Virus record (IMG/VR): IMGVR_UViG_2563366969_000004
Location: 1-40,824 of that record
Direction: 5' to 3' (one strand)
DNA from: a virus
Taxonomy: Duplodnaviria; Heunggongvirae; Uroviricota; Caudoviricetes
DNA length: 40,824 nucleotides
A model generated the notes under the pieces. It made no database searches. It was not told the origin of the DNA and saw nothing but the letters and a program-made list of their open reading frames with translations. Both the position numbers and the translations under genes were made by a program. Position 1 is the first letter of the stretch, and the number at the start of each line of letters is the position of its first letter. Shown here piece after piece: positions 1-40,824 of this stretch.

Positions 1-516
1 ATGAAATTTAAAAAATGTCTTCTGCCTGTGGCAATGTTAGCGTCATTCACTCTGGCAGGATGCCAGTCAAATGCTGATGATCATGCCGCCGATGTTTATC
101 AAACCGATCAACTGAATACCAAACAAGAAACTAAAACCGTTAATATTATTTCCATTCTTCCCGCAAAAGTTGCCGTAGACAACGCCCAAAATAAACGGAA
201 CGCACAAGCCTTCGGCGCGCTTATTGGCGCTGTCGCTGGCGGTGTTATCGGCCACAACGTCGGGTCTGGCAGCAATTCCGGAACGACGGCAGGTGCAGTT
301 GGCGGCGGAGCTGTAGGCGCGGCAGCGGGTTCGATGGTGAATGATAAAACCTTAGTGGAAGGTGTTTCTTTAACATATAAGGAAGGCACCAAAGTGTATA
401 CCTCCACCCAGGTGGGTAAAGAGTGCCAGTTTACGACAGGTTTAGCCGTTGTTATTACCACGACGTATAACGAAACGCGTATTCAGCCAAATACCAAATG
501 TCCTGAAAAGAGCTAA
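1..516 (+). CDS. Lipoprotein with glycine-zipper segment (probable host flank gene)
   Basis: ATG at position 1; signal peptide ending in lipobox LAGC; Gly/Ala-rich zipper (GALIGAVAGGVIGHNVG...) typical of enterobacterial 17-kDa-antigen/YcfJ-like outer membrane lipoproteins. Confidence 0.6.
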   Translation: MKFKKCLLPVAMLASFTLAGCQSNADDHAADVYQTDQLNTKQETKTVNIISILPAKVAVDNAQNKRNAQAFGALIGAVAGGVIGHNVGSGSNSGTTAGAVGGGAVGAAAGSMVNDKTLVEGVSLTYKEGTKVYTSTQVGKECQFTTGLAVVITTTYNETRIQPNTKCPEKS

Positions 517-531
517 TAATCAGGAGGAGTC

Positions 532-1071
532 ATGAAGAAAGTTTTTCTTTGCGCCATCTTAGCCTCCTTAAGCTATCCGGCTATCGCCTCATCATTGCAG
601 GATCAACTCTCGGCTGTCGCAGAAGCGGAACAGCAAGGTAAAAATGAAGAGCAAAGGCAGCATGACGAATGGGTCGCGGAGCGCAACAGGGAAATCCAGC
701 AAGAGAAGCAACGTCGCGCAAACGCCCAGGCCGCGGCTAATAAAAGAGCGGCAACGGCAGCAGCGAATAAGAAAGCTCGTCAGGATAAACTGGACGCCGA
801 AGCCACTGCGGACAAAAAACGCGATCAAAGTTATGAAGATGAGCTACGTAGCTTAGAGATTCAGAAACAAAAACTGGCGCTGGCGAAAGAAGAAGCCCGC
901 GTCAAGCGCGAAAACGAATTTATCGATCAGGAACTGAAGCACAAAGCTGCGCAAACCGATGTGGTGCAATCTGAAGCTGACGCAAACAGAAATATGACTG
1001 AAGGCGGTCGCGATCTGATGAAAAGCGTGGGCAAAGCAGAAGAGAACAAATCGGACAGCTGGTTTAATTAA
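532..1071 (+). CDS. Secreted Lys/Glu/Ala-rich coiled-coil protein, unknown function (probable host flank gene)
   Basis: SD AGGAGG upstream of ATG; N-terminal signal peptide; highly charged low-complexity body; followed by bidirectional terminator. Confidence 0.55.
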   Translation: MKKVFLCAILASLSYPAIASSLQDQLSAVAEAEQQGKNEEQRQHDEWVAERNREIQQEKQRRANAQAAANKRAATAAANKKARQDKLDAEATADKKRDQSYEDELRSLEIQKQKLALAKEEARVKRENEFIDQELKHKAAQTDVVQSEADANRNMTEGGRDLMKSVGKAEENKSDSWFN

Positions 1072-1110
1072 TCGATGTAAGTAACTTCAAGCCTATAATT
1101 CTTGAAGATA

Positions 1111-1140
1111 AAAAACCCTCTGTAGTAACAGAGGGTTTTG
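1111..1140. terminator. Bidirectional rho-independent terminator
   Basis: AAAAA-CCCTCTGT-agta-ACAGAGGG-TTTTG: 8-bp stem flanked by A-run and T-run. Confidence 0.6.
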
Positions 1141-1267
1141 TTCATTCATAGTGCAGGGATCAAAATCATTCCCACTCAATTATTTACGGATACCATAAAC
1201 AATTGATTGATAACAACTTTCTGCAACATGATTTTCACCGTACCGTTTTATATACCGTCGCCGGAAA

Positions 1268-1765
1268 TCAGTGCCACGATTTTTGCTTCTTCAGTGAATC
1301 GTATTGCTGTTCGCAGGATTCTCCTGCAATCCGATACTTTTCAGCCTCAGCTGCTGTTGCGTTGTAAACTCGATTGCTTTCTTCAAGCATGTCGGCGAGC
1401 ACACCGATGACCTTGCTGGCTGGCGTGCCAGTGGGGAAAGATCCGGTATAGTGTTCGGCGAGTCGCTTGGTTTTGTCAAGCTCGGCGCGCAGGCTGTCAG
1501 CAGCGGCATTAGCATGCTCAGCATCAACACGCGCCACATCGATACGGGATTGTGCTTCACGTTCAATTTGTGTTTTCTCCTGATCACGTTGTGACCTGGC
1601 CTTATCATCAGCCTGTTTCTGATCTTCCTGTGCCTGCGCATACCCGGCATCGTACTGGCGGCTGCCGTGTATATTCCAGGCAACCACTCCGACGATGAAC
1701 AGAGCAGCAAGCATCAACACGATAAGCAGCTGTTTCCAATATGCTTTTACGAATGTCAGGATCAT
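1268..1765 (-). CDS. Rz-like i-spanin (lysis)
   Basis: N-terminal TM helix then charged coiled-coil periplasmic domain; immediately downstream of endolysin with 4-nt overlap. Confidence 0.7.
1291..1539 (-). CDS. Rz1-like o-spanin candidate embedded in alternate frame of Rz
   Basis: ATG at 1537..1539 (complement); signal peptide with lipobox LTAC followed by proline-rich mature region; wholly inside Rz gene in a different frame; start uncertain (other in-frame ATGs at 1522, 1513, 1507). Confidence 0.4.
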   Translation of the reverse strand: MWRVLMLSMLMPLLTACAPSLTKPSDSPNTIPDLSPLARQPARSSVCSPTCLKKAIEFTTQQQLRLKSIGLQENPANSNTIH

Positions 1766-2391
1766 ACCGCCAGCACCTTACTGGCATTGATGTATCGCGC
1801 GCGCCGGTCGTCGATGCCGTTCCGGCCACCATTGATAATCAGAGTTACACGTGCAATATCGCCGGTATACTTCATGCATCCTTTGCTGGCAAAGAACCAC
1901 GCCGCGCTACGAGCCGCATATTCGTCCTGCGCCAGCAGTTCAGGGCTCTCCAGCAGGTCAACCTTCAGACCGTTTCCGCAATCACGATAGTTATTCAAAC
2001 CGGTAATCTGGATAAGTCCGCGCCCTCGGTAATTCCAGCCATCACCAGGGGCATTGTTCCCCATGCGTTTGCTGTATACCAGATTTGCGATCGCGCGCTG
2101 GCGCTCAAGTGGCAATGGTGGTTCACCAGCACGGCGCCCCAGTGCATTAGCCTGCCCCTGAGTGAGACGCCCAGCCCGAACGAAGTTAGCCAGTCCGCTG
2201 ACACTGTAGTTGAAATTCTCTTGCAACCTGGTGAAGCCCCCAGACTCATGCCCGACTTGAGCAATAAACATTGCCTGATCTTCTGCTTTGCTGATACCAA
2301 ACTCTTTCATCGCAGAAGTTATATGCGAGAACCAGCGTGCGGCCAGTGCCTCGCTGATACCAGCAGCTCGCTGGAATTGTTTAATCTCCAT
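1762..2391 (-). CDS. Endolysin, glycoside hydrolase family 19 (chitinase-like lysozyme)
   Basis: Protein from [11 protein letters not shown]... with [12 protein letters not shown] and [12 protein letters not shown] motifs characteristic of GH19 phage endolysins; SD GAGGT 7 nt upstream of ATG at 2389..2391; the six-frame ORF extends further upstream without RBS. Confidence 0.8.
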
Positions 2392-2689
2392 GTTTAGACC
2401 TCGATACTTTAAAAATTTGAACGACGTTACCGCGCGTTTTAATAACCGCAGCCAGCATGACAGCGTTGATAATGACCTCAGATAAATCCACAGCCATTGG
2501 CGTACGTAACCAGATTGCATAGGCGACTCGAACAGGAATACTGGCCGCAGCAACAATCAGGAAATAAGCAAGCCATCCTCCCCACCTTCGATGTTGAGAG
2601 CCGTTACGCCGGAATGTGACAACGCGAATTGCTATGCCAGTGCAAATAACTGCATTGGTGATAAGCAAAAAAAACTCATGCGTTACCAT
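2381..2689 (-). CDS. Small membrane protein in lysis cassette (holin or antiholin candidate)
   Basis: About 3 predicted hydrophobic helices, 102 aa, overlaps holin end and endolysin start. Confidence 0.5.
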
Positions 2690-3080
2690 CGTCTTTTCTC
2701 CCCGGAATTAACTCGCGTGGATTATCGGAACGGTGATAGAGCCATATACCAATACGCACAGCGACAATTGCTGACACGAATGCGCCTGCAGAGAAAACAA
2801 TCCCTTTTTCAAAAGAGTCCTGCGTGATGGTAGGGATCAGGCTGGCTATGCCGATAAGAATTGATGCTGCTGGTTTGTAAAAGAGAAGGCCGCAAAGAAA
2901 GCTGAGCATCGACAGGAGCACCCGGCGACGGATGGGGTACTCTACTGCAGAGGTAACAAAAATTACCGCCCCAGCCAAAGCCCCTAAAGCAACCTCCGGA
3001 GGGACACCTGCAATAACCGCAGCAAGAGAACCAAAACTAAGCAACTGATTTAATTGCTCACTTGTTACTTGAGCAGACAT
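2676..3080 (-). CDS. Holin candidate
   Basis: 134 aa, multiple hydrophobic helices, charged C-terminus; SD CAGGAG upstream; first gene of lysis cassette. Confidence 0.55.
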   Translation of the reverse strand: MSAQVTSEQLNQLLSFGSLAAVIAGVPPEVALGALAGAVIFVTSAVEYPIRRRVLLSMLSFLCGLLFYKPAASILIGIASLIPTITQDSFEKGIVFSAGAFVSAIVAVRIGIWLYHRSDNPRELIPGRKDDGNA

Positions 3081-3361
3081 ACTTTCTCCTGTTTACTATC
3101 TATAAGCCAGTCAATTATTGATGACTAAACCCGCATAGTAAACCATATATGAATCATTATTGTTCCGTATCATATATCTCAATAAAAGTACTAATGATTT
3201 TACAGAACGAGCCAGCAGAGTGGGGGCAGTTGTACAGGAACCATAGACTTAATTTTGTATTTAATAATGCTATGGTGTAATAAACCTGAACATGTATTTA
3301 AAATACGTACTGATTCATGATAGAATTCAAAGATAACTTTTCACAAACTCCGTTTTTGATA

Positions 3362-3388
3362 CCCGCAAAATATTGCGGGCTTTTTTTT
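3362..3388 (+). terminator. Rho-independent terminator oriented for plus strand
   Basis: CCCGCAA-aata-TTGCGGG followed by T8; overlaps stop of tailspike gene; no annotated plus-strand gene upstream. Confidence 0.45.
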
Positions 3389-6300
3389 AACGTTCTTCCA
3401 GAGACTGAATCCGCTCTTTTATCTTATCCATTTCTCTGCGCTGCCATGCTGCCTCGATATAGAATAAGAGATCAGGTCTGACCCCCCATCTAGATCCTGC
3501 TGGCGTTATTTCAACGCGCTCAATGATGTCTTCCATTACCATCACTGGATTATCATCCTCATCAACAATGATGCTCCCGTCATTATCAGTCAGCGGCATT
3601 TCCCTTTGGCCAGTAATGACGTCATCATATACTGCGGGATAATCGTCATAGCAAAGAAAGGCATAGCGGCATGTTGTGCTTTCTTCTTCCATGAGTCCGT
3701 GAGAAATAAGAACATCACGAAGTTGCTGCGCGATTACACCATGATGTATCCTCGCCCCTTCTTCCCCCTTTATAGCGACAGCGTTCAGCCATTTATAAGC
3801 GATATACCTGACGTCACCCCAGGCATCCAGCAATGCTTCGTCAGGAGAGACCGGCTCTGTCTTTAATGTTCCGTCACTGGTAACCACAGGATTGGAGCCA
3901 AGATAAACTGTCGAGAACCTGTTTCCCGGACCACCAAGAGCATTTACATTATCAAGATAAGGTTTAACATCTCCGTTCTCAAAAAGATGTTCGAGTGCGT
4001 TATATACCGCGCGACGTGGAGTACTGCTTCCGGAACCATGCAACGTTATCATTGCACCATCTGCTGAAGACGTTGTTTCACCGCCGCTAACGATTAATCT
4101 CTGAGCGGTAACATCATCAGACGGTACTTTCTTCGCAATAATGGCGTAATTACCCTCAAGTTTGACTTCCGCGCGAACTTGTCCTGATGTACCTGCATGG
4201 ACAGTCAGTGACTGGACGGCAACATCATCTGTGAAATCAACGGGTACAGGAACCGTCCTCACGCCTGACGTCGACATAAAAGTAGGAAGCGTTCTGTTAG
4301 GAGTGGCTCCGTAGACAAAATCCCTTGAAACAAATTCTTCCTGTTTAATTTTCACCCTGAAACAATACAAATCAGCCGGGTGACCATCGTGAACATAAGG
4401 ATATTTTCTGTTGTTATCCCCTATGCTCCATGGGTTTAGAAAGTCTTCCCCACCGAAAATGTAGTACAGCCAGTTGTCTTTGATACAAACTGAACCAACA
4501 CCAACCGCAGAGTTAACTATTCCGCCCTGATAAATCTGATCAGTAACATTAACCCACTCTACATTATCCAGACTCCACTCATTGACGTTAACTCTGGTCA
4601 TAAATGTTCTTGGATAGTTTCCTGCATAACGGTTATCAGGTTCTCCTCCTTCCCACTCACCAAATGCGCGCTCACTGCCAAAAATAATCAGCTCATCGCC
4701 AACTTTGGCAAAAGGAAGGTTTGAGTGATGAACATTATTTGGGAAGCGAAGAGAATTCCATGATGTACCTAAATCAGAGCTTCTGTGCAATGAACTACCG
4801 GGTTGAGTACTTAATGTCCCCCTGGTCGTCAGATACAGAATGCCATCATAATATTTTACACATGGCTCAGATGCATTCGCCTCATATTCTGCAGGTATGC
4901 GTCTGCGAACAAAGCTACCAGGAGAACCGAAAGCATCAGAGAAATAGAGTATCCCAAGCTCGCGTGGACCAATATCACCATTATGGTAGCCAACAGCAAA
5001 ACTGTTATCGCTAATCGTCGCAAAACTGTGAATCTCAGTAACAGGAGTGCTTCCGTCAACAAAAGAAGGAATAGTTCCAAGACTGGTTTTTCTCCATGGT
5101 GACGAGTGAAATGATGTACCAAAACTCCAGTATCTACCCTCGTTATTCTGATCCACATCCTGGGTATTTTGCGTCGTAACTGTAAAAGTATTTTTATCAA
5201 TAACAGTAGTCACCGTCATATTCCCGGTAACACCTGTAACACCAGAGTTTGAGAAGTTGACAAAATCACCAGCAAATAATCCGTGATCAGTAATGCGAAT
5301 ATAAGCGACTTGCTGATTTGCTGCTTTCGTTATACCACCATAAACGCGAAGGCTGCGACTCATTGGGCGATCCCACAACTCTGCAACCTGCAGTTTATTT
5401 CCGCTCACGGTCCGCGTCTCAATTACAGCAAAAAGGCGATTTCTGACAACCCCCATACTCATGCAGTGATAGTTAACTGTGGGATAGTTTTCATGTAAAT
5501 CTGTAAGCCATTCCGGCGTTGTCCAGGTCTTCCCGTCATCTCCTGAGCGAACCCATGCAACATGGAGGTTATTTACACCATGGCGGTCTCCAGCCATAAA
5601 AGGCGCATAGATGACATTGTCATATACAAACGTTTTATCCTGCGTCCAGGCGTTGTACCACGGTGTATCTGTAATTTTAAATAACTCTCCCTGGATAAAA
5701 TCTTCAGAAGCATAAAAAAGAGGCTGGCCCGGTATTCTCTCAAATAAAAAACGAGCATTTTTAAATCGACTGACATCCGGAAGAGTTGATACTTTAAAAG
5801 TAAGCCCTAATCCGTCAATTTTATAACCTGGAGATGAGGCTTCAAGGCACGCGCTTATTGCAGTGGAATCGTCATTTATACCATCACCAACAGCTCCAAA
5901 ATCTTTGGGGCTAATAGCATCACGCATTTTATCCTGGAACGTTCGGTACACAGCCCCAGAACCATACTGAATAAACCAACCAAAACCACCAACAACCCCG
6001 GCGATTGCAGCATCGACATAATTACGCATTGAGCGATTATTTACAGCGTCCTGCTCAAATGATGGATCTGCAAGGTTAGAAATTTTGTTTTGCTTTGCAT
6101 CGTAATATTTTGCAAGCAAAGATGGTTTCATCAATGCACGTCTGAACCACCCAAAACATTGCTGGATCAGCATCGTCAGGTAGTCAAAGGCATCTTCATG
6201 CACTTCGGGGAAAAATTTTCCCTGATTGCGAAGGTCTGTCTCCTGCACTACATCAAGCACACGATCTATCGTAATTCGCCATCCAGTAGCAAGCGGAGAC

Positions 6301-6506
6301 GGAAGAACCACAGAACCGCCACTATAAGTGCCCGCCCCAGTTACCGTATAACCGGTATCCAGAACCAATTCTGTTACGTTTCCGTTCAGGTCAGACACCT
6401 GAACAACCAGGTCTGATTTTCTGAAAATTCGAAAAGTATACGGAAACGATGTCGTAACGCCGTTACCGGTGTATTCGTTGTGGTCAACTTCGGTTGAGAC
6501 CGTCAT
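3387..6506 (-). CDS. Tailspike / polysaccharide depolymerase with C-terminal intramolecular chaperone (peptidase S74-like) domain
   Basis: 1039 aa; N-terminal virion-attachment-like segment; motif DFGAVGDGINDDSTAI; two Asp-box motifs (SGDDGKTW, SSDLGTSW) as in sialidase-type propellers; C-terminal SDGTLK motif and conserved tail resembling the auto-cleaving chaperone of endosialidases; SD GGAG upstream. Confidence 0.8.
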   Translation of the reverse strand: MTVSTEVDHNEYTGNGVTTSFPYTFRIFRKSDLVVQVSDLNGNVTELVLDTGYTVTGAGTYSGGSVVLPSPLATGWRITIDRVLDVVQETDLRNQGKFFPEVHEDAFDYLTMLIQQCFGWFRRALMKPSLLAKYYDAKQNKISNLADPSFEQDAVNNRSMRNYVDAAIAGVVGGFGWFIQYGSGAVYRTFQDKMRDAISPKDFGAVGDGINDDSTAISACLEASSPGYKIDGLGLTFKVSTLPDVSRFKNARFLFERIPGQPLFYASEDFIQGELFKITDTPWYNAWTQDKTFVYDNVIYAPFMAGDRHGVNNLHVAWVRSGDDGKTWTTPEWLTDLHENYPTVNYHCMSMGVVRNRLFAVIETRTVSGNKLQVAELWDRPMSRSLRVYGGITKAANQQVAYIRITDHGLFAGDFVNFSNSGVTGVTGNMTVTTVIDKNTFTVTTQNTQDVDQNNEGRYWSFGTSFHSSPWRKTSLGTIPSFVDGSTPVTEIHSFATISDNSFAVGYHNGDIGPRELGILYFSDAFGSPGSFVRRRIPAEYEANASEPCVKYYDGILYLTTRGTLSTQPGSSLHRSSDLGTSWNSLRFPNNVHHSNLPFAKVGDELIIFGSERAFGEWEGGEPDNRYAGNYPRTFMTRVNVNEWSLDNVEWVNVTDQIYQGGIVNSAVGVGSVCIKDNWLYYIFGGEDFLNPWSIGDNNRKYPYVHDGHPADLYCFRVKIKQEEFVSRDFVYGATPNRTLPTFMSTSGVRTVPVPVDFTDDVAVQSLTVHAGTSGQVRAEVKLEGNYAIIAKKVPSDDVTAQRLIVSGGETTSSADGAMITLHGSGSSTPRRAVYNALEHLFENGDVKPYLDNVNALGGPGNRFSTVYLGSNPVVTSDGTLKTEPVSPDEALLDAWGDVRYIAYKWLNAVAIKGEEGARIHHGVIAQQLRDVLISHGLMEEESTTCRYAFLCYDDYPAVYDDVITGQREMPLTDNDGSIIVDEDDNPVMVMEDIIERVEITPAGSRWGVRPDLLFYIEAAWQRREMDKIKERIQSLEER

Positions 6507-6682: not shown

Positions 6683-6701
6683 ATTGCATGGAGAAGATAA
6701 G

Positions 6702-6959
6702 ATGCAGCAGTATCACTATCCACTGGAAGACGGATTTACCGAAAGGATTCACACGCCGGGAGGCGTCAGGTCACTGGTGGAGGGATCGCACTTGATGAAA
6801 TTACTCCGGGATCTCGATAAGGATGGATTTAATGTCGATGGCCCACTTGCCGAACTGACTGCACTGATTAACTACGTCACCAGCTCACAGATGTCTATGC
6901 AGGATCTGCAAACACATCTCGACTATTGTGCCGAACAATTACGAAAACAAACCCGGTAA
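6702..6959 (+). CDS. Small protein (85 aa) homologous to C-terminal domain of the Bro-N protein at 8108..8818; candidate SOS-inducible antirepressor
   Basis: ATG at 6702 with SD GGAG 8 nt upstream (the six-frame ORF start at 6684 is TTG); roughly 40 percent identity by eye over about 70 aa to residues about 165-236 of the Bro-N protein; LexA box on its promoter. Confidence 0.6.
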   Translation: MQQYHYPLEDGFTERIHTPGGVRSLVEGSHLMKLLRDLDKDGFNVDGPLAELTALINYVTSSQMSMQDLQTHLDYCAEQLRKQTR

Positions 6960-6965
6960 ATTTAA

Positions 6966-6983
6966 AGGCCGCAAGAGCGGCCT
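6966..6983. terminator. Hairpin between convergent genes (terminator-like)
   Basis: AGGCCGC-aaga-GCGGCCT; same stem sequence recurs at 9642..9659. Confidence 0.4.
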
Positions 6984-7710
6984 ATCGTTTCGCTTTGTGC
7001 TCGTCCCAGCACGTTTTGCACCATGCCATTAAGCCGTCCGCATTTTGATTATTAGGGTAAAAGCTGGTCCGTTTTCTGCGGACATTACAAATTGGGCACC
7101 ACTTCATATGGCGTGTATTCTTTGGGCCATCGAGACACCTTGCACACCACTTAGTCAATCCATCTGGATTTTTTGACGATTTCCGGAATTTGTCATATGG
7201 AAGGTTTATTCTGCATCGCAAACACTGCTTGCGGCCACTTGAAACTCTGTTAGCTGATTCTTCTTTTGGCGGCGATACAGAAGGTATTCTTGCTGGCTCT
7301 GATACTGCCTGAGGTGCTTTTTTAGATGACTGAGACGATATGTCATCACCAGGGAATCTTCCATGATATGCCGGACGCGTTGACACTCCAGGTGGAAGCT
7401 CAGCTGTAAACGGCTTTGGCTGAATCAGTTGCCTCTCTTTTGCTAACTCCTGCTGTTTATAATATGTCTGGATTACCGCACTATCATAAGCAGGAGGTAC
7501 GGAAATATCAGGCGCGTTACCTCCAGTTTTTTGAAAATGAGTAGATGTGTGTTCTATCACCTGTGTACGACTAATCGTTACCTCCCCATCTTCGGTCTTT
7601 ATCGTTTTGTTCTGATTAACGACCGTACGATCAGAGATCTTAGTCTTGTTCTGGTTGATAACGTAAATAATCACCGCAACCACACCAACAACTATCCAGA
7701 AAACTTCCAT
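6982..7710 (-). CDS. Membrane-anchored protein with tandem C4 zinc-ribbon repeats, unknown function
   Basis: N-terminal TM helix followed by basic residues; C-terminal two repeats of C-x2-C-x21/22-(DGL..W)C-x2-C; SD GAGGAAAA upstream of ATG. Confidence 0.6.
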   Translation of the reverse strand: MEVFWIVVGVVAVIIYVINQNKTKISDRTVVNQNKTIKTEDGEVTISRTQVIEHTSTHFQKTGGNAPDISVPPAYDSAVIQTYYKQQELAKERQLIQPKPFTAELPPGVSTRPAYHGRFPGDDISSQSSKKAPQAVSEPARIPSVSPPKEESANRVSSGRKQCLRCRINLPYDKFRKSSKNPDGLTKWCARCLDGPKNTRHMKWCPICNVRRKRTSFYPNNQNADGLMAWCKTCWDEHKAKR

Positions 7711-7730
7711 TGCTTTTCCTCACAATAACA

Positions 7731-7745
7731 TTACCTTAAAGGTAA
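7731..7745. promoter_or_regulatory. TTACC-N5-GGTAA palindrome, copy B
   Basis: ATTACCttaaaGGTAAT, 20 bp upstream of start of 6982..7710 gene in divergent region. Confidence 0.5.
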
Positions 7746-7823
7746 TATCTTGCTTTCAGGTGATCAAGCGTTAAACGCAATCAACCAAATACGGTTGATT
7801 TTAATATTTCTTCGCGTTTATCA

Positions 7824-7951: not shown

Positions 7952-8107
7952 ATGCGTTAAGCACAGCTATATCCGAATTATGGTGGGCTGGGCAGGGGTC
8001 CGAAAGGACGCCGGTACCACTTAGGCCGGTACGCCAACCTTGTCCAGTTCACCACCAGTAATTGGCGTTGCGGTGGTGATTAAAATCACTAAGTGGAGAT
8101 AACCACC

Positions 8108-8818
8108 ATGGCTAATGCTCAAACTTCCATCTTCAAATTTGAATCTGTTAACCCTATCCGTTCCATCATTATCGATGGCCAACCATGGTTTGTAGCCCAA
8201 GACGTTTGTAGTGCGCTGCGTATCCAAAACGTCACCCAAGCACTTGAAAAACTGGATGATGATGAAAGGTCTATGTTCAACATAGGGCATGAACATCGTG
8301 CAATTTTTGACAGCCGAGTAAAAGAGATCAACATCATCTCCGAGTCAGGCCTCTACACACTGATCCTCAGCTGCCGCGACGCAGTGACACCAGGCACTAT
8401 CCCCTACCGCTTTCGTAAATGGGTTACAGGTGAGGTTCTTCCTCAGATCCGCCGCACCGGAAGTTACATAAAAAACTCGCTCCCGCAAGAAGAACGCATA
8501 AAGATGGTTGCCGACCAGGTAGCCAACGCCACGGCGTCAGCAGTAATGCAGGCGATGAAGATAGAGAACAAAACCTACAGTGCCCCACTGAAGCCCGGCT
8601 ACCGCAGCCTGATTCACTCGCCGTCTGGTGTTCTCGGCCTGACGGAGAACTCACTGCTGATGAATCTGTTGAACCAGTTACAGGAAGACGGGCACGACGT
8701 ATCGGGCGCGGCGGCGGAGCTGACCACCATGTTCTGCTACATCGTCGGTGTGAGCAAATGCCTGCGTGATATCCAGACCCACGCGGAGTACATCAACGAC
8801 AAGGCAGGGTTCTTCTGA
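8108..8818 (+). CDS. Bro-N domain antirepressor-like protein (Ant-like)
   Basis: N-terminal Bro-N/KilA-N-like motif (IFKFES...IRSIIIDGQPWFVAQDVCSALRI...) ; C-terminal domain homologous to 6702..6959 product; ATG 8108 with SD GGAG (the six-frame ORF starts at GTG 8093). Confidence 0.7.
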   Translation: MANAQTSIFKFESVNPIRSIIIDGQPWFVAQDVCSALRIQNVTQALEKLDDDERSMFNIGHEHRAIFDSRVKEINIISESGLYTLILSCRDAVTPGTIPYRFRKWVTGEVLPQIRRTGSYIKNSLPQEERIKMVADQVANATASAVMQAMKIENKTYSAPLKPGYRSLIHSPSGVLGLTENSLLMNLLNQLQEDGHDVSGAAAELTTMFCYIVGVSKCLRDIQTHAEYINDKAGFF

Positions 8819-26566: not shown

Positions 26567-26643
26567 GTGGCATTAGCTCAGTTGGACAGAGCAACCGCCT
26601 TCTAAGCGGTTGGTCGCAGGTTCGAATCCTGCATGCCACGCCA
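26567..26643 (+). tRNA. tRNA-Arg (anticodon UCU), phage-encoded
   Basis: Cloverleaf folded by hand: acceptor GTGGCAT/ATGCCAC, D-arm GCTC/GAGC, anticodon stem ACCGC/GCGGT with loop CTTCTAA, T-arm GCAGG-TTCGAAT-CCTGC, discriminator G and encoded CCA. Confidence 0.9.
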
Positions 26644-39567: not shown

Positions 39568-40824
39568 TTATTTATTACTGTCTTCCATCCACTTCTCAAA
39601 CTTCGACGGGGAGAACGGAATCAGATCCGTATGCTCCCCGTTAATCCAGGAATCAATCATATCGGCCCACTGCTGCAACATGTAGGCGCGCTGTCTGGCG
39701 TATTCCGCTTTGTTATATACGGCGCGCACACCTTTCTGCTCATGTGCCAGAGCCTTTTCAATCCAGTCTGAAGGATAACCAGCCTCATGCAACAACGTAC
39801 TGGCTGTACGGCGCATATCATGTACAGTGAAGTCCTGAATATACTCACCATCTTCATTTATTATTTTCACCGTTCTGTCGATCAGAGAGTTCAGTGCGGC
39901 ATTAGATAATGGCTTCCGGAAATTGTAACGACCAGGAACCAGATATTCACTTCCACCAGCGCACATCTGCAACCCAACCAATATATCCTGTGCCTGTTTT
40001 GGCAGGTAAATAACGTGCGCCCGGCTTCCCTTCATGCGGTCTGAAGGAATTGTCCATGTCCATTTTTTAAAATCTATTTCGTCCCACGTTGCATTGGTGA
40101 ATTCGCCTTTACGAACCATAGTGATAAGCACCAGTTTTAAAGCCATTTTCATAGTGCCCATAGCACCAATGGCATCCAGCGTGCGGAAGAAAAGACCAAT
40201 TTCTTCTGGTGTCAGCGTTCGCTCTCGTGGTTTAAATATGGCGATAGACGAAGGCTTAATATCAGCCGCAGGATTAAACAAACCATGACCGCGGTCATTG
40301 GCGTGACGGTATACGCTGCTGATGATCTCCCTGGCCTGCACTGCTGTTGCCCGGCCACCGCGTTCGACAATCCGGTCACACAAATCACGAACCATCGATG
40401 TGGTAATTTCAGCCATCATTTTGTTGCCAAGAACCGGAAGTATGTCACGGTCGATCACCGCCTGCTTCATTGCGCGGGTACTGTCAGCCAGGATGACGTG
40501 TTTCATATAACTGTCGGTATGTACCGCAAACGTCTCGGCACCACGAATCTTTTTGATACCGTCACGTTTAGCCGCAGCCGGCGACTGGCCTGCTTTAAGC
40601 AACTTCTTTGCAGCAATCAGTTCTTCCCGCGCTTCTGCCAGGCTGATACCGTCACGCCCATACTGCCCGATTACCAGTGTTTCGCGGCGACCGTTGATAC
40701 GGTAGTCATAGCGAAACGAGACCGTACCTGACGTAAGCACAGCTACATACAGCCCGTCACGATCGGAGACCTTGTACAGTTTGTCCTGCGGCTTGAGGTT
40801 TTTTAATTTTGTATCGGTAAGCAC
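39568..40824 (-). CDS. int: Tyrosine integrase; GTG start codon at 40822..40824, flush with window edge, so true N-terminus may lie beyond
   Basis: N-terminal arm-binding-type domain; C-terminal catalytic region with HxxR and terminal Tyr segment (HDMRRTASTLL...RAVYNKAEY). Confidence 0.85.
   Translation of the reverse strand: MLTDTKLKNLKPQDKLYKVSDRDGLYVAVLTSGTVSFRYDYRINGRRETLVIGQYGRDGISLAEAREELIAAKKLLKAGQSPAAAKRDGIKKIRGAETFAVHTDSYMKHVILADSTRAMKQAVIDRDILPVLGNKMMAEITTSMVRDLCDRIVERGGRATAVQAREIISSVYRHANDRGHGLFNPAADIKPSSIAIFKPRERTLTPEEIGLFFRTLDAIGAMGTMKMALKLVLITMVRKGEFTNATWDEIDFKKWTWTIPSDRMKGSRAHVIYLPKQAQDILVGLQMCAGGSEYLVPGRYNFRKPLSNAALNSLIDRTVKIINEDGEYIQDFTVHDMRRTASTLLHEAGYPSDWIEKALAHEQKGVRAVYNKAEYARQRAYMLQQWADMIDSWINGEHTDLIPFSPSKFEKWMEDSNK

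Follow-up and report, generated by a model that had tools for sequence, protein, structure and literature searches.

The structure and catalysis of endosialidases, their autocleaving chaperone and the modular swapping of their N-termini have been established on the spikes of K1F, K1E, phi92 and CUS-3. The best comparison is EndoNF (gp17; structures 1v0e, 3gvl and 3gw6) of K1F, a lytic autographivirus whose spike has a T7-type N-terminal domain. The K1F catalytic residues are H350, R549, E581, R596 and R647, and the beta-barrel is one of three polysialic-acid binding sites described for EndoNF (PMC12632334). The GH58 propeller has two Asp boxes, one in blade 1 and one in blade 4 (PMC2716378), and a Ser/Lys dyad acts in chaperone autocleavage, with N912 and G956 reported as essential in K1F (PMC3742443). 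The phi92 homologue EndoN92 (gp143; 4hiz) belongs to a myovirus with multiple spikes. CUS-3, a P22-like prophage of E. coli K1 RS218, encodes the 981-aa spike SiaK1 (ABQ88383.1), which has a P22-type head-binding N-terminal domain and an adjacent neuO O-acetyltransferase gene; its record gives endo-alpha-sialidase activity with experimental evidence (IDA, PMID 16689790). For ORF7 of phage vB_EcoP_ZX5 (MW722083, QTH80017.1), named merely "tail fiber domain-containing protein" in GenBank, the authors list three parts: a tail-fibre domain at the N-terminus, an endosialidase in the centre and an intramolecular chaperone at the C-terminus (PMC9782041).

We analyzed a window of 40,824 nucleotides (the whole stretch of DNA under study) that contains a tailspike gene on the minus strand at 3387..6506. 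The open reading frame list and translation give one uninterrupted frame of 1039 aa, from an ATG at the 6506 end to a TAA stop codon at the 3387 end, corresponding to a precursor of 115.6 kDa. The first-pass annotation had called a single 1039-aa tailspike at this position, and all the motifs that it quoted were found where it had placed them. A terminator scan and inspection of the sequence revealed a GC-rich hairpin at 3362..3379 (no strand assigned), directly after the stop codon and with an A/T run on the gene-facing side; judging from this position, the candidate is likely to be a transcription terminator between the tailspike gene and the lysis cassette.

The gene is 99.9% identical at the DNA level to ZX5 ORF7. 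ORF7 and RefSeq WP_000218907.1, the protein named in the two RefSeq records inspected, represent the same protein (99.9-100% identity over 1039 aa), and ZX5 shares the Uetakevirus genome context; we find no difference of substance between ORF7 and the tailspike. RefSeq genes annotated as endosialidase are 99.9-100% identical among the matches listed, and 72 complete E. coli genomes carry the full gene. The protein is thus already known from GenBank, RefSeq and one paper, and nothing conceptually new comes from the gene. We estimate a probability of about 95% that its product is the tailspike of an epsilon15/phiV10-like temperate podophage, predicted to be a GH58 endo-alpha-2,8-sialidase with the K1 polysialic-acid capsule as its specific substrate. 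Part of this best explanation is that the prophage, a Uetakevirus, is integrated beside yfgI in the chromosome of an extraintestinal pathogenic E. coli.

Along most of its length, the prophage shares 97-99% identity with phiV10-like phages, and its structural genes show it to be a complete Uetakevirus-like element (97-99% identity to phiV10, phiv142-3, HEMP4 and ZX5). It is very unlikely that the tailspike gene is a decaying, disused relic in a defective prophage. Copies interrupted by an IS or truncated do occur in some genomes (H146, H163, H170-H172), but the ORF studied here is intact, and the prophage has complete lysis, tail, head, terminase, replication and integrase genes. The full-length gene is present at at least 99.9% identity in the best 20 of the 72 carrier genomes, and ZX5, whose gene is 99.9% identical, is a temperate isolate that forms lysogens (PMC9782041).

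The analysis directly established the domain architecture, the homology, the conservation of residues, the identity to enzymes already characterised and the mosaic boundaries. Four endosialidase Pfam domains and Peptidase_S74 all exceed their gathering scores. The catalytic six-bladed beta-propeller (PF12217) occupies 4344..5693 on the minus strand (aa 272-721) and matches the full model, positions 1-367, with 774.9 bits against a cutoff of 24 (E=1.4e-233). A beta-barrel is inserted into the propeller (PF12195; 5112..5360, minus strand, aa 383-465; E=3.2e-46, 155.7 bits), the N-terminal extension (PF12218; 5694..5894, minus strand, aa 205-271; E=5.9e-32, 109.6 bits) precedes it, and the stalk or tailspike domain (PF12219; 3879..4343, minus strand, aa 722-876; E=8.4e-78, 260.4 bits) follows; all three accessory domains of the GH58 architecture are full-length and above cutoff. 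Among PDB sequences, EndoNF structures 1v0e and 3gvl match aa 205-876 at E=0, with the PF12218 region aligned to residues 2-62 of 1v0e, and the phi92 structure matches at 1.7e-271. Identity to EndoNF, which shares this architecture, is approximately 62% across aa 196-1039; the K1F propeller lacks a 7-residue insert (FVDGSTP) present in the tailspike. EndoN92 has homologous catalytic and chaperone domains (approximately 58-59% identity). A non-sialidase fold, named at the outset as an outcome that would count against the sialidase reading, is not what these comparisons return; identity to a crystal structure is approximately 62% across 670 residues.

All five published catalytic residues of K1F are conserved, H350, R549, E581, R596 and R647 corresponding to H309, R515, E547, R562 and R613 of the tailspike. 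The propeller is 70% identical to that of K1F and 100% identical in amino acid sequence to that of CUS-3 SiaK1. These observations make it extremely unlikely that the spike is catalytically dead, a lectin-like receptor-binding protein that binds polysialic acid and has no depolymerase activity: all five residues are kept, and the identical CUS-3 enzyme is recorded as active. Binding-competent, inactive endosialidase variants do serve as reagents (review PMC5380687). Two peripheral residues also differ from K1F (K410 to Gly and Q853 to Met), but both substitutions are common to CUS-3. Q853 is a stalk binding-site residue. K410 was proposed in vitro as a gateway residue of K1F but was dispensable in a deep mutational scan (PMC12632334).

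Two Asp boxes were found by motif scan, SGDDGKTW at aa 321-328 (window 5523-5546, minus strand) and SSDLGTSW at aa 576-583 (window 4758-4781, minus strand). When the sequence is shuffled with its composition preserved, 0.0017 matches to the strict pattern S.D.G.[TS]W are expected per shuffle, and none of 20,000 such shuffles contained two or more matches, so the two boxes are not due to chance. They align with the boxes SGDDGQTW and SRDIGQTW of EndoNF, so that the tailspike has exactly two, at the blade 1 and blade 4 positions of K1F. The first-pass annotation had reported both boxes and read them as sialidase-type; the relation to sialidases stood, but the protein is predicted from its sequence to be an endo-acting GH58 endo-N-acetylneuraminidase (endosialidase), not a GH33 exo-sialidase. 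Its broader proposal, that the spike degrades the capsule and may act on polymers of sialic acid, agrees with the Pfam, PDB and catalytic-residue evidence.

It is exceedingly improbable that the tailspike is a classical exo-sialidase (GH33), or that it acts on another sialic-acid polymer (K92, with alternating alpha-2,8 and alpha-2,9 linkages, or a sialylated O-antigen) instead of K1. Asp boxes are also found in GH33 sialidases, and according to its annotation the phi92 homologue (58% identity) cleaves K92 polymer in addition to K1. Against this, the tailspike has the complete GH58 architecture with beta-barrel insert and stalk, and its catalytic module shows no difference from that of the K1-specific CUS-3 spike. 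A motif scan of the tailspike ORF for a FRIP-like motif ([FYW]R[IVL]P) found none, and BNR_2 scored 17.2 bits against a cutoff of 31.4; a GH33 assignment was rejected. A side activity of the tailspike on the alpha-2,8 bonds of K92 is possible.

The C-terminal region at 3390..3878 on the minus strand (aa 877-1039, 18.7 kDa) is an intramolecular chaperone or autoprotease domain (Peptidase_S74), as had been proposed earlier. PF13884 matches with 41.4-45.3 bits against a cutoff of 22, and the EndoNF chaperone structure 3gw6 matches aa 757-1038 (E=1.3e-93). The motif SDGTLK lies at aa 877-882 (window 3861-3878, minus strand), with Ser877 encoded at 3876-3878 and Lys882 at 3861-3863. By itself an SD...K pattern is weak evidence, being expected 0.18 times per shuffle; it is significant here because it aligns with S911/K916 of EndoNF, right after the ...GSNP(V/I)VT that ends the mature K1F protein. 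The assignment of SDGTLK as the S74 Ser/Lys dyad on the basis of its spacing was therefore correct, and S877 and K882 are invariant in a four-way alignment, where the mature stalk ends immediately before the Ser. Stalk alignment stops at ...GSNPVVT, which is both the C-terminus of crystallised mature EndoNF and the mat_peptide boundary of the K1F record. In the K1F and phi92 records, the annotated boundary between mature protein and C-terminal domain falls on T876|S877 in the alignment; in EndoN92 it lies at the equivalent Thr|Ser. T876 is accordingly the predicted C-terminus of the mature spike, and the predicted products are 97.0 and 18.7 kDa. G956 of K1F is conserved as G923. N912 corresponds to D878, and Asp is also found at this position in CUS-3, phi92 and MYRF (D579). 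The K410, Q853 and N912 substitutions provide no argument against tailspike function.

The N-terminal particle-binding (tail-attachment) module at 5913..6506 on the minus strand (aa 1-198) is, by homology, of the epsilon15/phiV10-like (Uetakevirus) type. It is nearly identical to the N-termini of the phiv142-3 (Orf6) and EC.W1-9 ("eliminase") tailspikes, and approximately 200 aa of this kind are common to spikes of the genus, with a syntenic genome. The module matches aa 1-214 of the solved Dpo31 and Dpo36 tailspikes (28lx, 8ck1; E approximately 1e-36), and, at 22% identity, it bears no relation to the P22-type domain for head binding in the CUS-3 spike. The T7 tail-fibre domain PF03906 reached 16.1 bits against a cutoff of 25.2, in aa 135-161 only, and identity to the K1F N-terminus is approximately 20%; a distant kinship with the T7-type N-terminal domain is possible on these sequence matches. 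The ZX5 paper terms this N-terminus T7-like (PMC9782041).

Downstream lies a junction segment at 5808..5912 on the minus strand (aa 199-233), which contains DFGAVGDGINDDSTAI and forms the start of the endosialidase N-terminal extension. It carries DFGAVGDG (aa 202-209, window 5880-5903, minus strand) and DDSTAI (aa 212-217, window 5856-5873, minus strand), both located by motif scan at the boundary of the particle-binding and receptor-binding modules. Its protein sequence aligns with End_N_terminal of K1F, phi92 and CUS-3. At the identical position, the G-x-GDG-x-x-DD motif also stands at the start of the beta-helix domain in the spikes of phiv142-3 and EC.W1-9, whose receptor-binding parts are unrelated, of beta-helix type (709 and 624 aa), and lack endosialidase and S74 domains. 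There is a negligible chance that the DFGAVGDG...DDSTAI motif denotes a pectate-lyase-type right-handed beta-helix depolymerase: it weakly matches an initial stretch of approximately 25-50 residues in several proteins with a beta-helix (beta-1,3-glucanase 5m5z at 9e-5, the Sf6 tailspike, phi29 gp12 and mannuronan epimerases) and PF12708 at E=0.035, but the match spans just 21-50 residues or so, the endosialidase propeller lies downstream, and K1F, phi92 and CUS-3 endosialidases have the same motif in their N-terminal extensions. Of the earlier label "pectate-lyase-like", the resemblance of the motif holds and the lyase domain does not. PF12708 was rejected at 14.3 bits against a cutoff of 27, in aa 201-221 only (21 residues), inside the endosialidase N-terminal extension, with the resemblance limited to an N-terminal cap motif.

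Most of the rest of the endosialidase gene is shared with CUS-3. By blastn and mafft, the shared block extends over 3416..5808 on the minus strand (2393 nt), with 10 differences (99.6% identity) and sharp boundaries on both sides; it encodes aa 234-1030. Beyond the identical propeller, the stalk is 98.7% and the chaperone 99.3% identical to SiaK1 (to aa 1024), and the predicted cleavage site is the same. By contrast, the tailspike has the epsilon15-type N-terminus, its last approximately 10 residues differ, and the prophage has no neuO: neither the acetyltransferase gene nor its heptanucleotide phase-variation repeat was found in the window by tblastx and tandem-repeat search. The sequence comparison indicates that the tailspike is a mosaic, in which an epsilon15/phiV10-type N-terminal module is fused to the CUS-3 catalytic module.

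Both prophage types can reside in one host. APEC O1 carries them approximately 167 kb apart. Among 5426 complete genomes, 153 have the CUS-3-type junction and 72 the full epsilon15-type gene, while at most 194 have any match to the module; simple counting therefore gives at least approximately 31 genomes with both prophage types. Module carriers include genomes labelled K1 (O1:K1:H7) and cerebrospinal-fluid isolates, and many K1 strains, APEC O1 among them, carry both types. We tentatively propose, at slightly below even odds, that the endosialidase module moved between two unrelated lineages of temperate podophages, the P22-like CUS-3 and the epsilon15-like Uetakevirus, when they recombined in K1 strains lysogenic for both, with the upstream crossover at or next to the conserved G-x-GDG-x-x-DD cap motif as a general tailspike splice point. 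The motif opens both endosialidase and beta-helix receptor-binding domains and would for this reason be a general splice point for module exchange. A blastn "distant" search across the junction segment returned only the ZX5 and Phi05 records, and the phage collection searched contained no source of this segment or of the 3' flank beyond the ZX5/Phi05 lineage. That these 35 codons have no DNA match elsewhere hints at a third parent or at an event further back in time.

By homology, the spike is assigned an enzymatic activity, cleavage of itself, assembly into a trimer and docking onto the tail, and it would work as follows. It would be synthesized as the 115.6-kDa precursor, in which the chaperone domain (aa 877-1039) would nucleate trimerisation and folding of the stalk (aa 722-876). 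After folding, Ser877, activated by Lys882, would cut the T876-S877 bond and release the 18.7-kDa fragment from the 97.0-kDa mature spike. The N-terminal 198 residues would attach the trimer to the phage tail. The propeller (aa 272-721; E547, R562, R613, H309 and R515) would then cut polysialic acid internally while the beta-barrel and the stalk hold the polymer, and the virion would thereby digest its way across the capsule and reach the outer membrane.

Taken together, the first-pass interpretation is essentially right, and the gene encodes an ordinary, previously described spike, predicted to digest the K1 capsule (polysialic acid) of E. coli and to carry a C-terminal folding domain that would remove itself. 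The mosaicism is the sole mildly interesting point of the tailspike, and its added value is modest: a clean case of one catalytic module on two temperate phage chassis that are often co-resident in K1 strains. For pathogenic E. coli of the neonatal-meningitis, urinary and avian types, the K1 capsule is a major virulence factor. The gene marks this polysialic-acid capsule as the receptor of the prophage, and identification of the receptor helps with annotation, with phage typing and with the sourcing of enzymes.

The tailspike gene is a single open reading frame on the minus strand (window 3387-6506, ATG to TAA in the ORF list), and its translation gives a protein of 1039 aa. Every motif quoted in the first-pass annotation was found in its place in this ORF by motif scan: the Asp boxes SGDDGKTW (aa 321-328; window 5523-5546, minus strand) and SSDLGTSW (aa 576-583; window 4758-4781, minus strand), DFGAVGDG (aa 202-209), DDSTAI (aa 212-217), and SDGTLK (aa 877-882; window 3861-3878, minus strand). 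Two strict Asp boxes are far above chance level, with 0.0017 boxes expected per shuffle and two boxes in 0 of 20,000 shuffles. The SD...K pattern alone (0.18 expected per shuffle) is not significant; it gains significance from its alignment with S911 and K916 of the K1F endosialidase, directly past the end of the mature chain.

Pfam called five consecutive domains, each over its own gathering score: End_N_terminal (aa 205-271, E=5.9e-32), End_beta_propel (aa 272-721, E=1.4e-233), End_beta_barrel inserted in the propeller (aa 383-465, E=3.2e-46), End_tail_spike (aa 722-876, E=8.4e-78), and Peptidase_S74 (aa 877-937, 41.4 bits against a cutoff of 22). In a PDB sequence search, the K1F endosialidase EndoNF (1v0e, 3gvl, 3gvj, and 3gvk) matched across aa 205-876 with E=0, the phi92 endosialidase (4hiz) with 1.7e-271, and the EndoNF C-terminal intramolecular chaperone domain (3gw6) over aa 757-1038 with 1.3e-93. 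According to a survey (PMC2716378), the six-bladed K1F propeller, of family GH58, has just two Asp boxes, one in blade 1 and one in blade 4; the two tailspike boxes line up with these. In a four-way alignment with CUS-3 (a P22-like prophage of E. coli K1), K1F, and phi92, the K1F catalytic residues H350, R549, E581, R596, and R647 (PMC12632334) are all kept, as H309, R515, E547, R562, and R613. As far as sequence can tell, the tailspike shows every testable defining feature of GH58 endosialidases; the GH58 domains, the EndoNF match, and the conserved catalytic residues support the earlier proposal of a capsule-degrading spike, possibly one acting on a sialic-acid polymer. Classification as a GH33 exo-sialidase was rejected, as the protein fails the GH33 tests.

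Mature K1F ends in GSNPIVT and its released C-terminal domain starts at S911, as indicated by the mat_peptide annotation and the end of the crystallised chain. The aligned tailspike counterpart is GSNPVVT876 followed by S877-D-G-T-L-K882, with S877, K882, and G923 corresponding to K1F S911, K916, and G956. Autocleavage is catalysed by a Ser/Lys dyad, and N912 and G956 were reported to be essential (PMC3742443). The N912 position is occupied by Asp in the tailspike, and likewise in CUS-3, phi92, and MYRF. The protein shows every defining feature of an S74 chaperone/autoprotease domain that sequence can test; the alignment with S911/K916 and the Peptidase_S74 score over cutoff argue that SDGTLK was correctly read as the S74 dyad.

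By homology, the chain would be made as a precursor of 115.6 kDa, whose C-terminal domain would promote trimerisation and folding of the stalk. Ser877/Lys882 would next cut at T876/S877, so that the mature chain would weigh 97.0 kDa and the released fragment 18.7 kDa (masses computed from sequence). The N-terminal module would attach the trimer to the tail. With the polymer gripped by the barrel and stalk sites, the propeller would make internal cuts in alpha-2,8 polysialic acid, allowing the virion to pass through the K1 capsule. For K1F, three binding sites and release of the C-terminal domain have been described (PMC12632334).

The exact tailspike sequence is already known. At the DNA level, its gene shares 99.9% identity with ORF7 of the isolated temperate Uetakevirus-like phage vB_EcoP_ZX5 (ZX5) and with two Phi05 prophage records. 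Of 5426 complete E. coli genomes, 72 contain a match (99.9-100% identity among the matches listed), annotated as 'endosialidase catalytic beta-propeller domain-containing protein' (RefSeq WP_000218907.1 in two records examined). ZX5 ORF7 has already been described (PMC9782041) as comprising a tail-fibre domain at the N-terminus, an endosialidase in the centre, and an endosialidase chaperone at the C-terminus. The CUS-3 spike gene siaK1 shares 99.6% DNA identity with gene nt 699-3091 (aa 234-1030; window 3416-5808): the two differ at just 10 sites, and ~1.7 kb is free of mismatches. At the protein level, identity is 100% in the propeller, 98.7% in the stalk, and 99.3% in the chaperone domain to aa 1024. 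The CUS-3 record carries endo-alpha-sialidase activity with direct-assay evidence.

By contrast, the P22-type head-binding domain of CUS-3 has no meaningful similarity to aa 1-198, whereas the tailspikes of the relatives phiv142-3 and EC.W1-9 have nearly identical N-termini and are otherwise unrelated. Sequence comparison therefore assigns aa 1-198 to the Uetakevirus chassis, as its particle-binding adaptor. N-terminal domain swaps among endosialidase spikes (CUS-3 versus K1F) are already textbook material (PMC5380687). Directly after this module, all three Uetakevirus-type spikes carry (R/K)DFGA-x-GDG-x-x-DD-x-x-AI; the GDG...DD motif begins a different receptor-binding domain in phiv142-3 and EC.W1-9, but the endosialidase N-terminal extension in K1F, phi92, CUS-3, and this tailspike. 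Its ~25 residues weakly match the opening strand in many right-handed beta-helix proteins, which accounts for the 'pectate-lyase-like' impression: DFGAVGDG...DDSTAI is present, but PF12708 reached just 14.3 bits over 21 residues, and there is therefore no lyase domain. Between the Uetakevirus-type and CUS-3-type blocks, aa 199-233 (35 codons, window 5808-5912) had no DNA match in the phage collection beyond the ZX5/Phi05 lineage, nor had the last ~10 codons and 3' flank. Being confined to this lineage, the 35-codon junction may reflect an earlier recombination or the contribution of a third parent.

By Pfam, the first two ORFs of the window (1-1071) are host yfgH (glycine-zipper 2TM) and yfgI (DUF5384), with 99.6% identity to the flank in APEC O1; the window is therefore a prophage cut out of an ExPEC chromosome. 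In PHROGs, yfgH is labelled 'DNA methyltransferase', apparently because genes flanking prophages have contaminated that PHROG. A lysis cassette (Rz-like spanin, GH19 endolysin, and two holins; 1268-3080) is followed by the tailspike, anti-repressor and moron genes, tail, head and terminase genes, the replication/immunity region, and the integrase (39568-40824). The epsilon15-like podophages phiV10, phiv142-3, HEMP4, and ZX5 (Uetakevirus) are 97-99% identical to most of the window. In the 306-bp gap between tailspike gene and lysis cassette, a GC-rich hairpin, CCCGCAAAATATTGCGGG (3362-3379), lies 8 nt past the tailspike stop codon, with its T-run in the plus strand and, toward the tailspike gene, an A-run; it may be a terminator. 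Adjoining the tailspike gene is a ~860-bp insertion relative to ZX5 (6954-7817). Its ORF (6982-7710, minus strand) encodes 242 aa, with a transmembrane helix near the N-terminus and, toward the C-terminus, two zinc-ribbon-like CxxC repeats. It matches phrog_6762 (no assigned function) and, weakly and below threshold, endonuclease VII, Lar-like, and Stc1 families, and looks like a moron. The small 91-aa ORF beside the tailspike gene (6684-6959, phrog_450) repeats the C-terminal domain of the Ant/BRO-N-type anti-repressor at 8093-8818. A tRNA-Arg (anticodon TCT; 26567-26643) lies between the portal and terminase regions, and the FDAARGOS_1300 prophage has one at the same site.

CUS-3 carries the polysialic-acid O-acetyltransferase gene neuO, and phiV10-type relatives carry an O-antigen acetyltransferase. 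In contrast, tblastx of the whole window detected no neuO homologue, and a tandem-repeat search of the window found no AAGACTC heptanucleotide array; this prophage therefore seems to have no receptor-modifying gene.

The 2.4-kb endosialidase module was present at ≥95% identity in 194 of the 5426 genomes (≥99% in 189), on the chromosome in every case. Since 153 genomes have the CUS-3-type junction and 72 the full Uetakevirus-type gene, counting implies that at least ~31 carry both. In APEC O1, the CUS-3-type spike with its adjoining acetyltransferase lies at 2.57 Mb (within 2570422-2579642) and the Uetakevirus-type spike, as in the window, at 2.74 Mb (within 2737041-2749160), in two different prophages ~167 kb apart. 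Such co-residence would offer an obvious opportunity for module transfer. The sole point worth stating is that one K1-specific module rides on two temperate phage chassis that are frequently co-resident.
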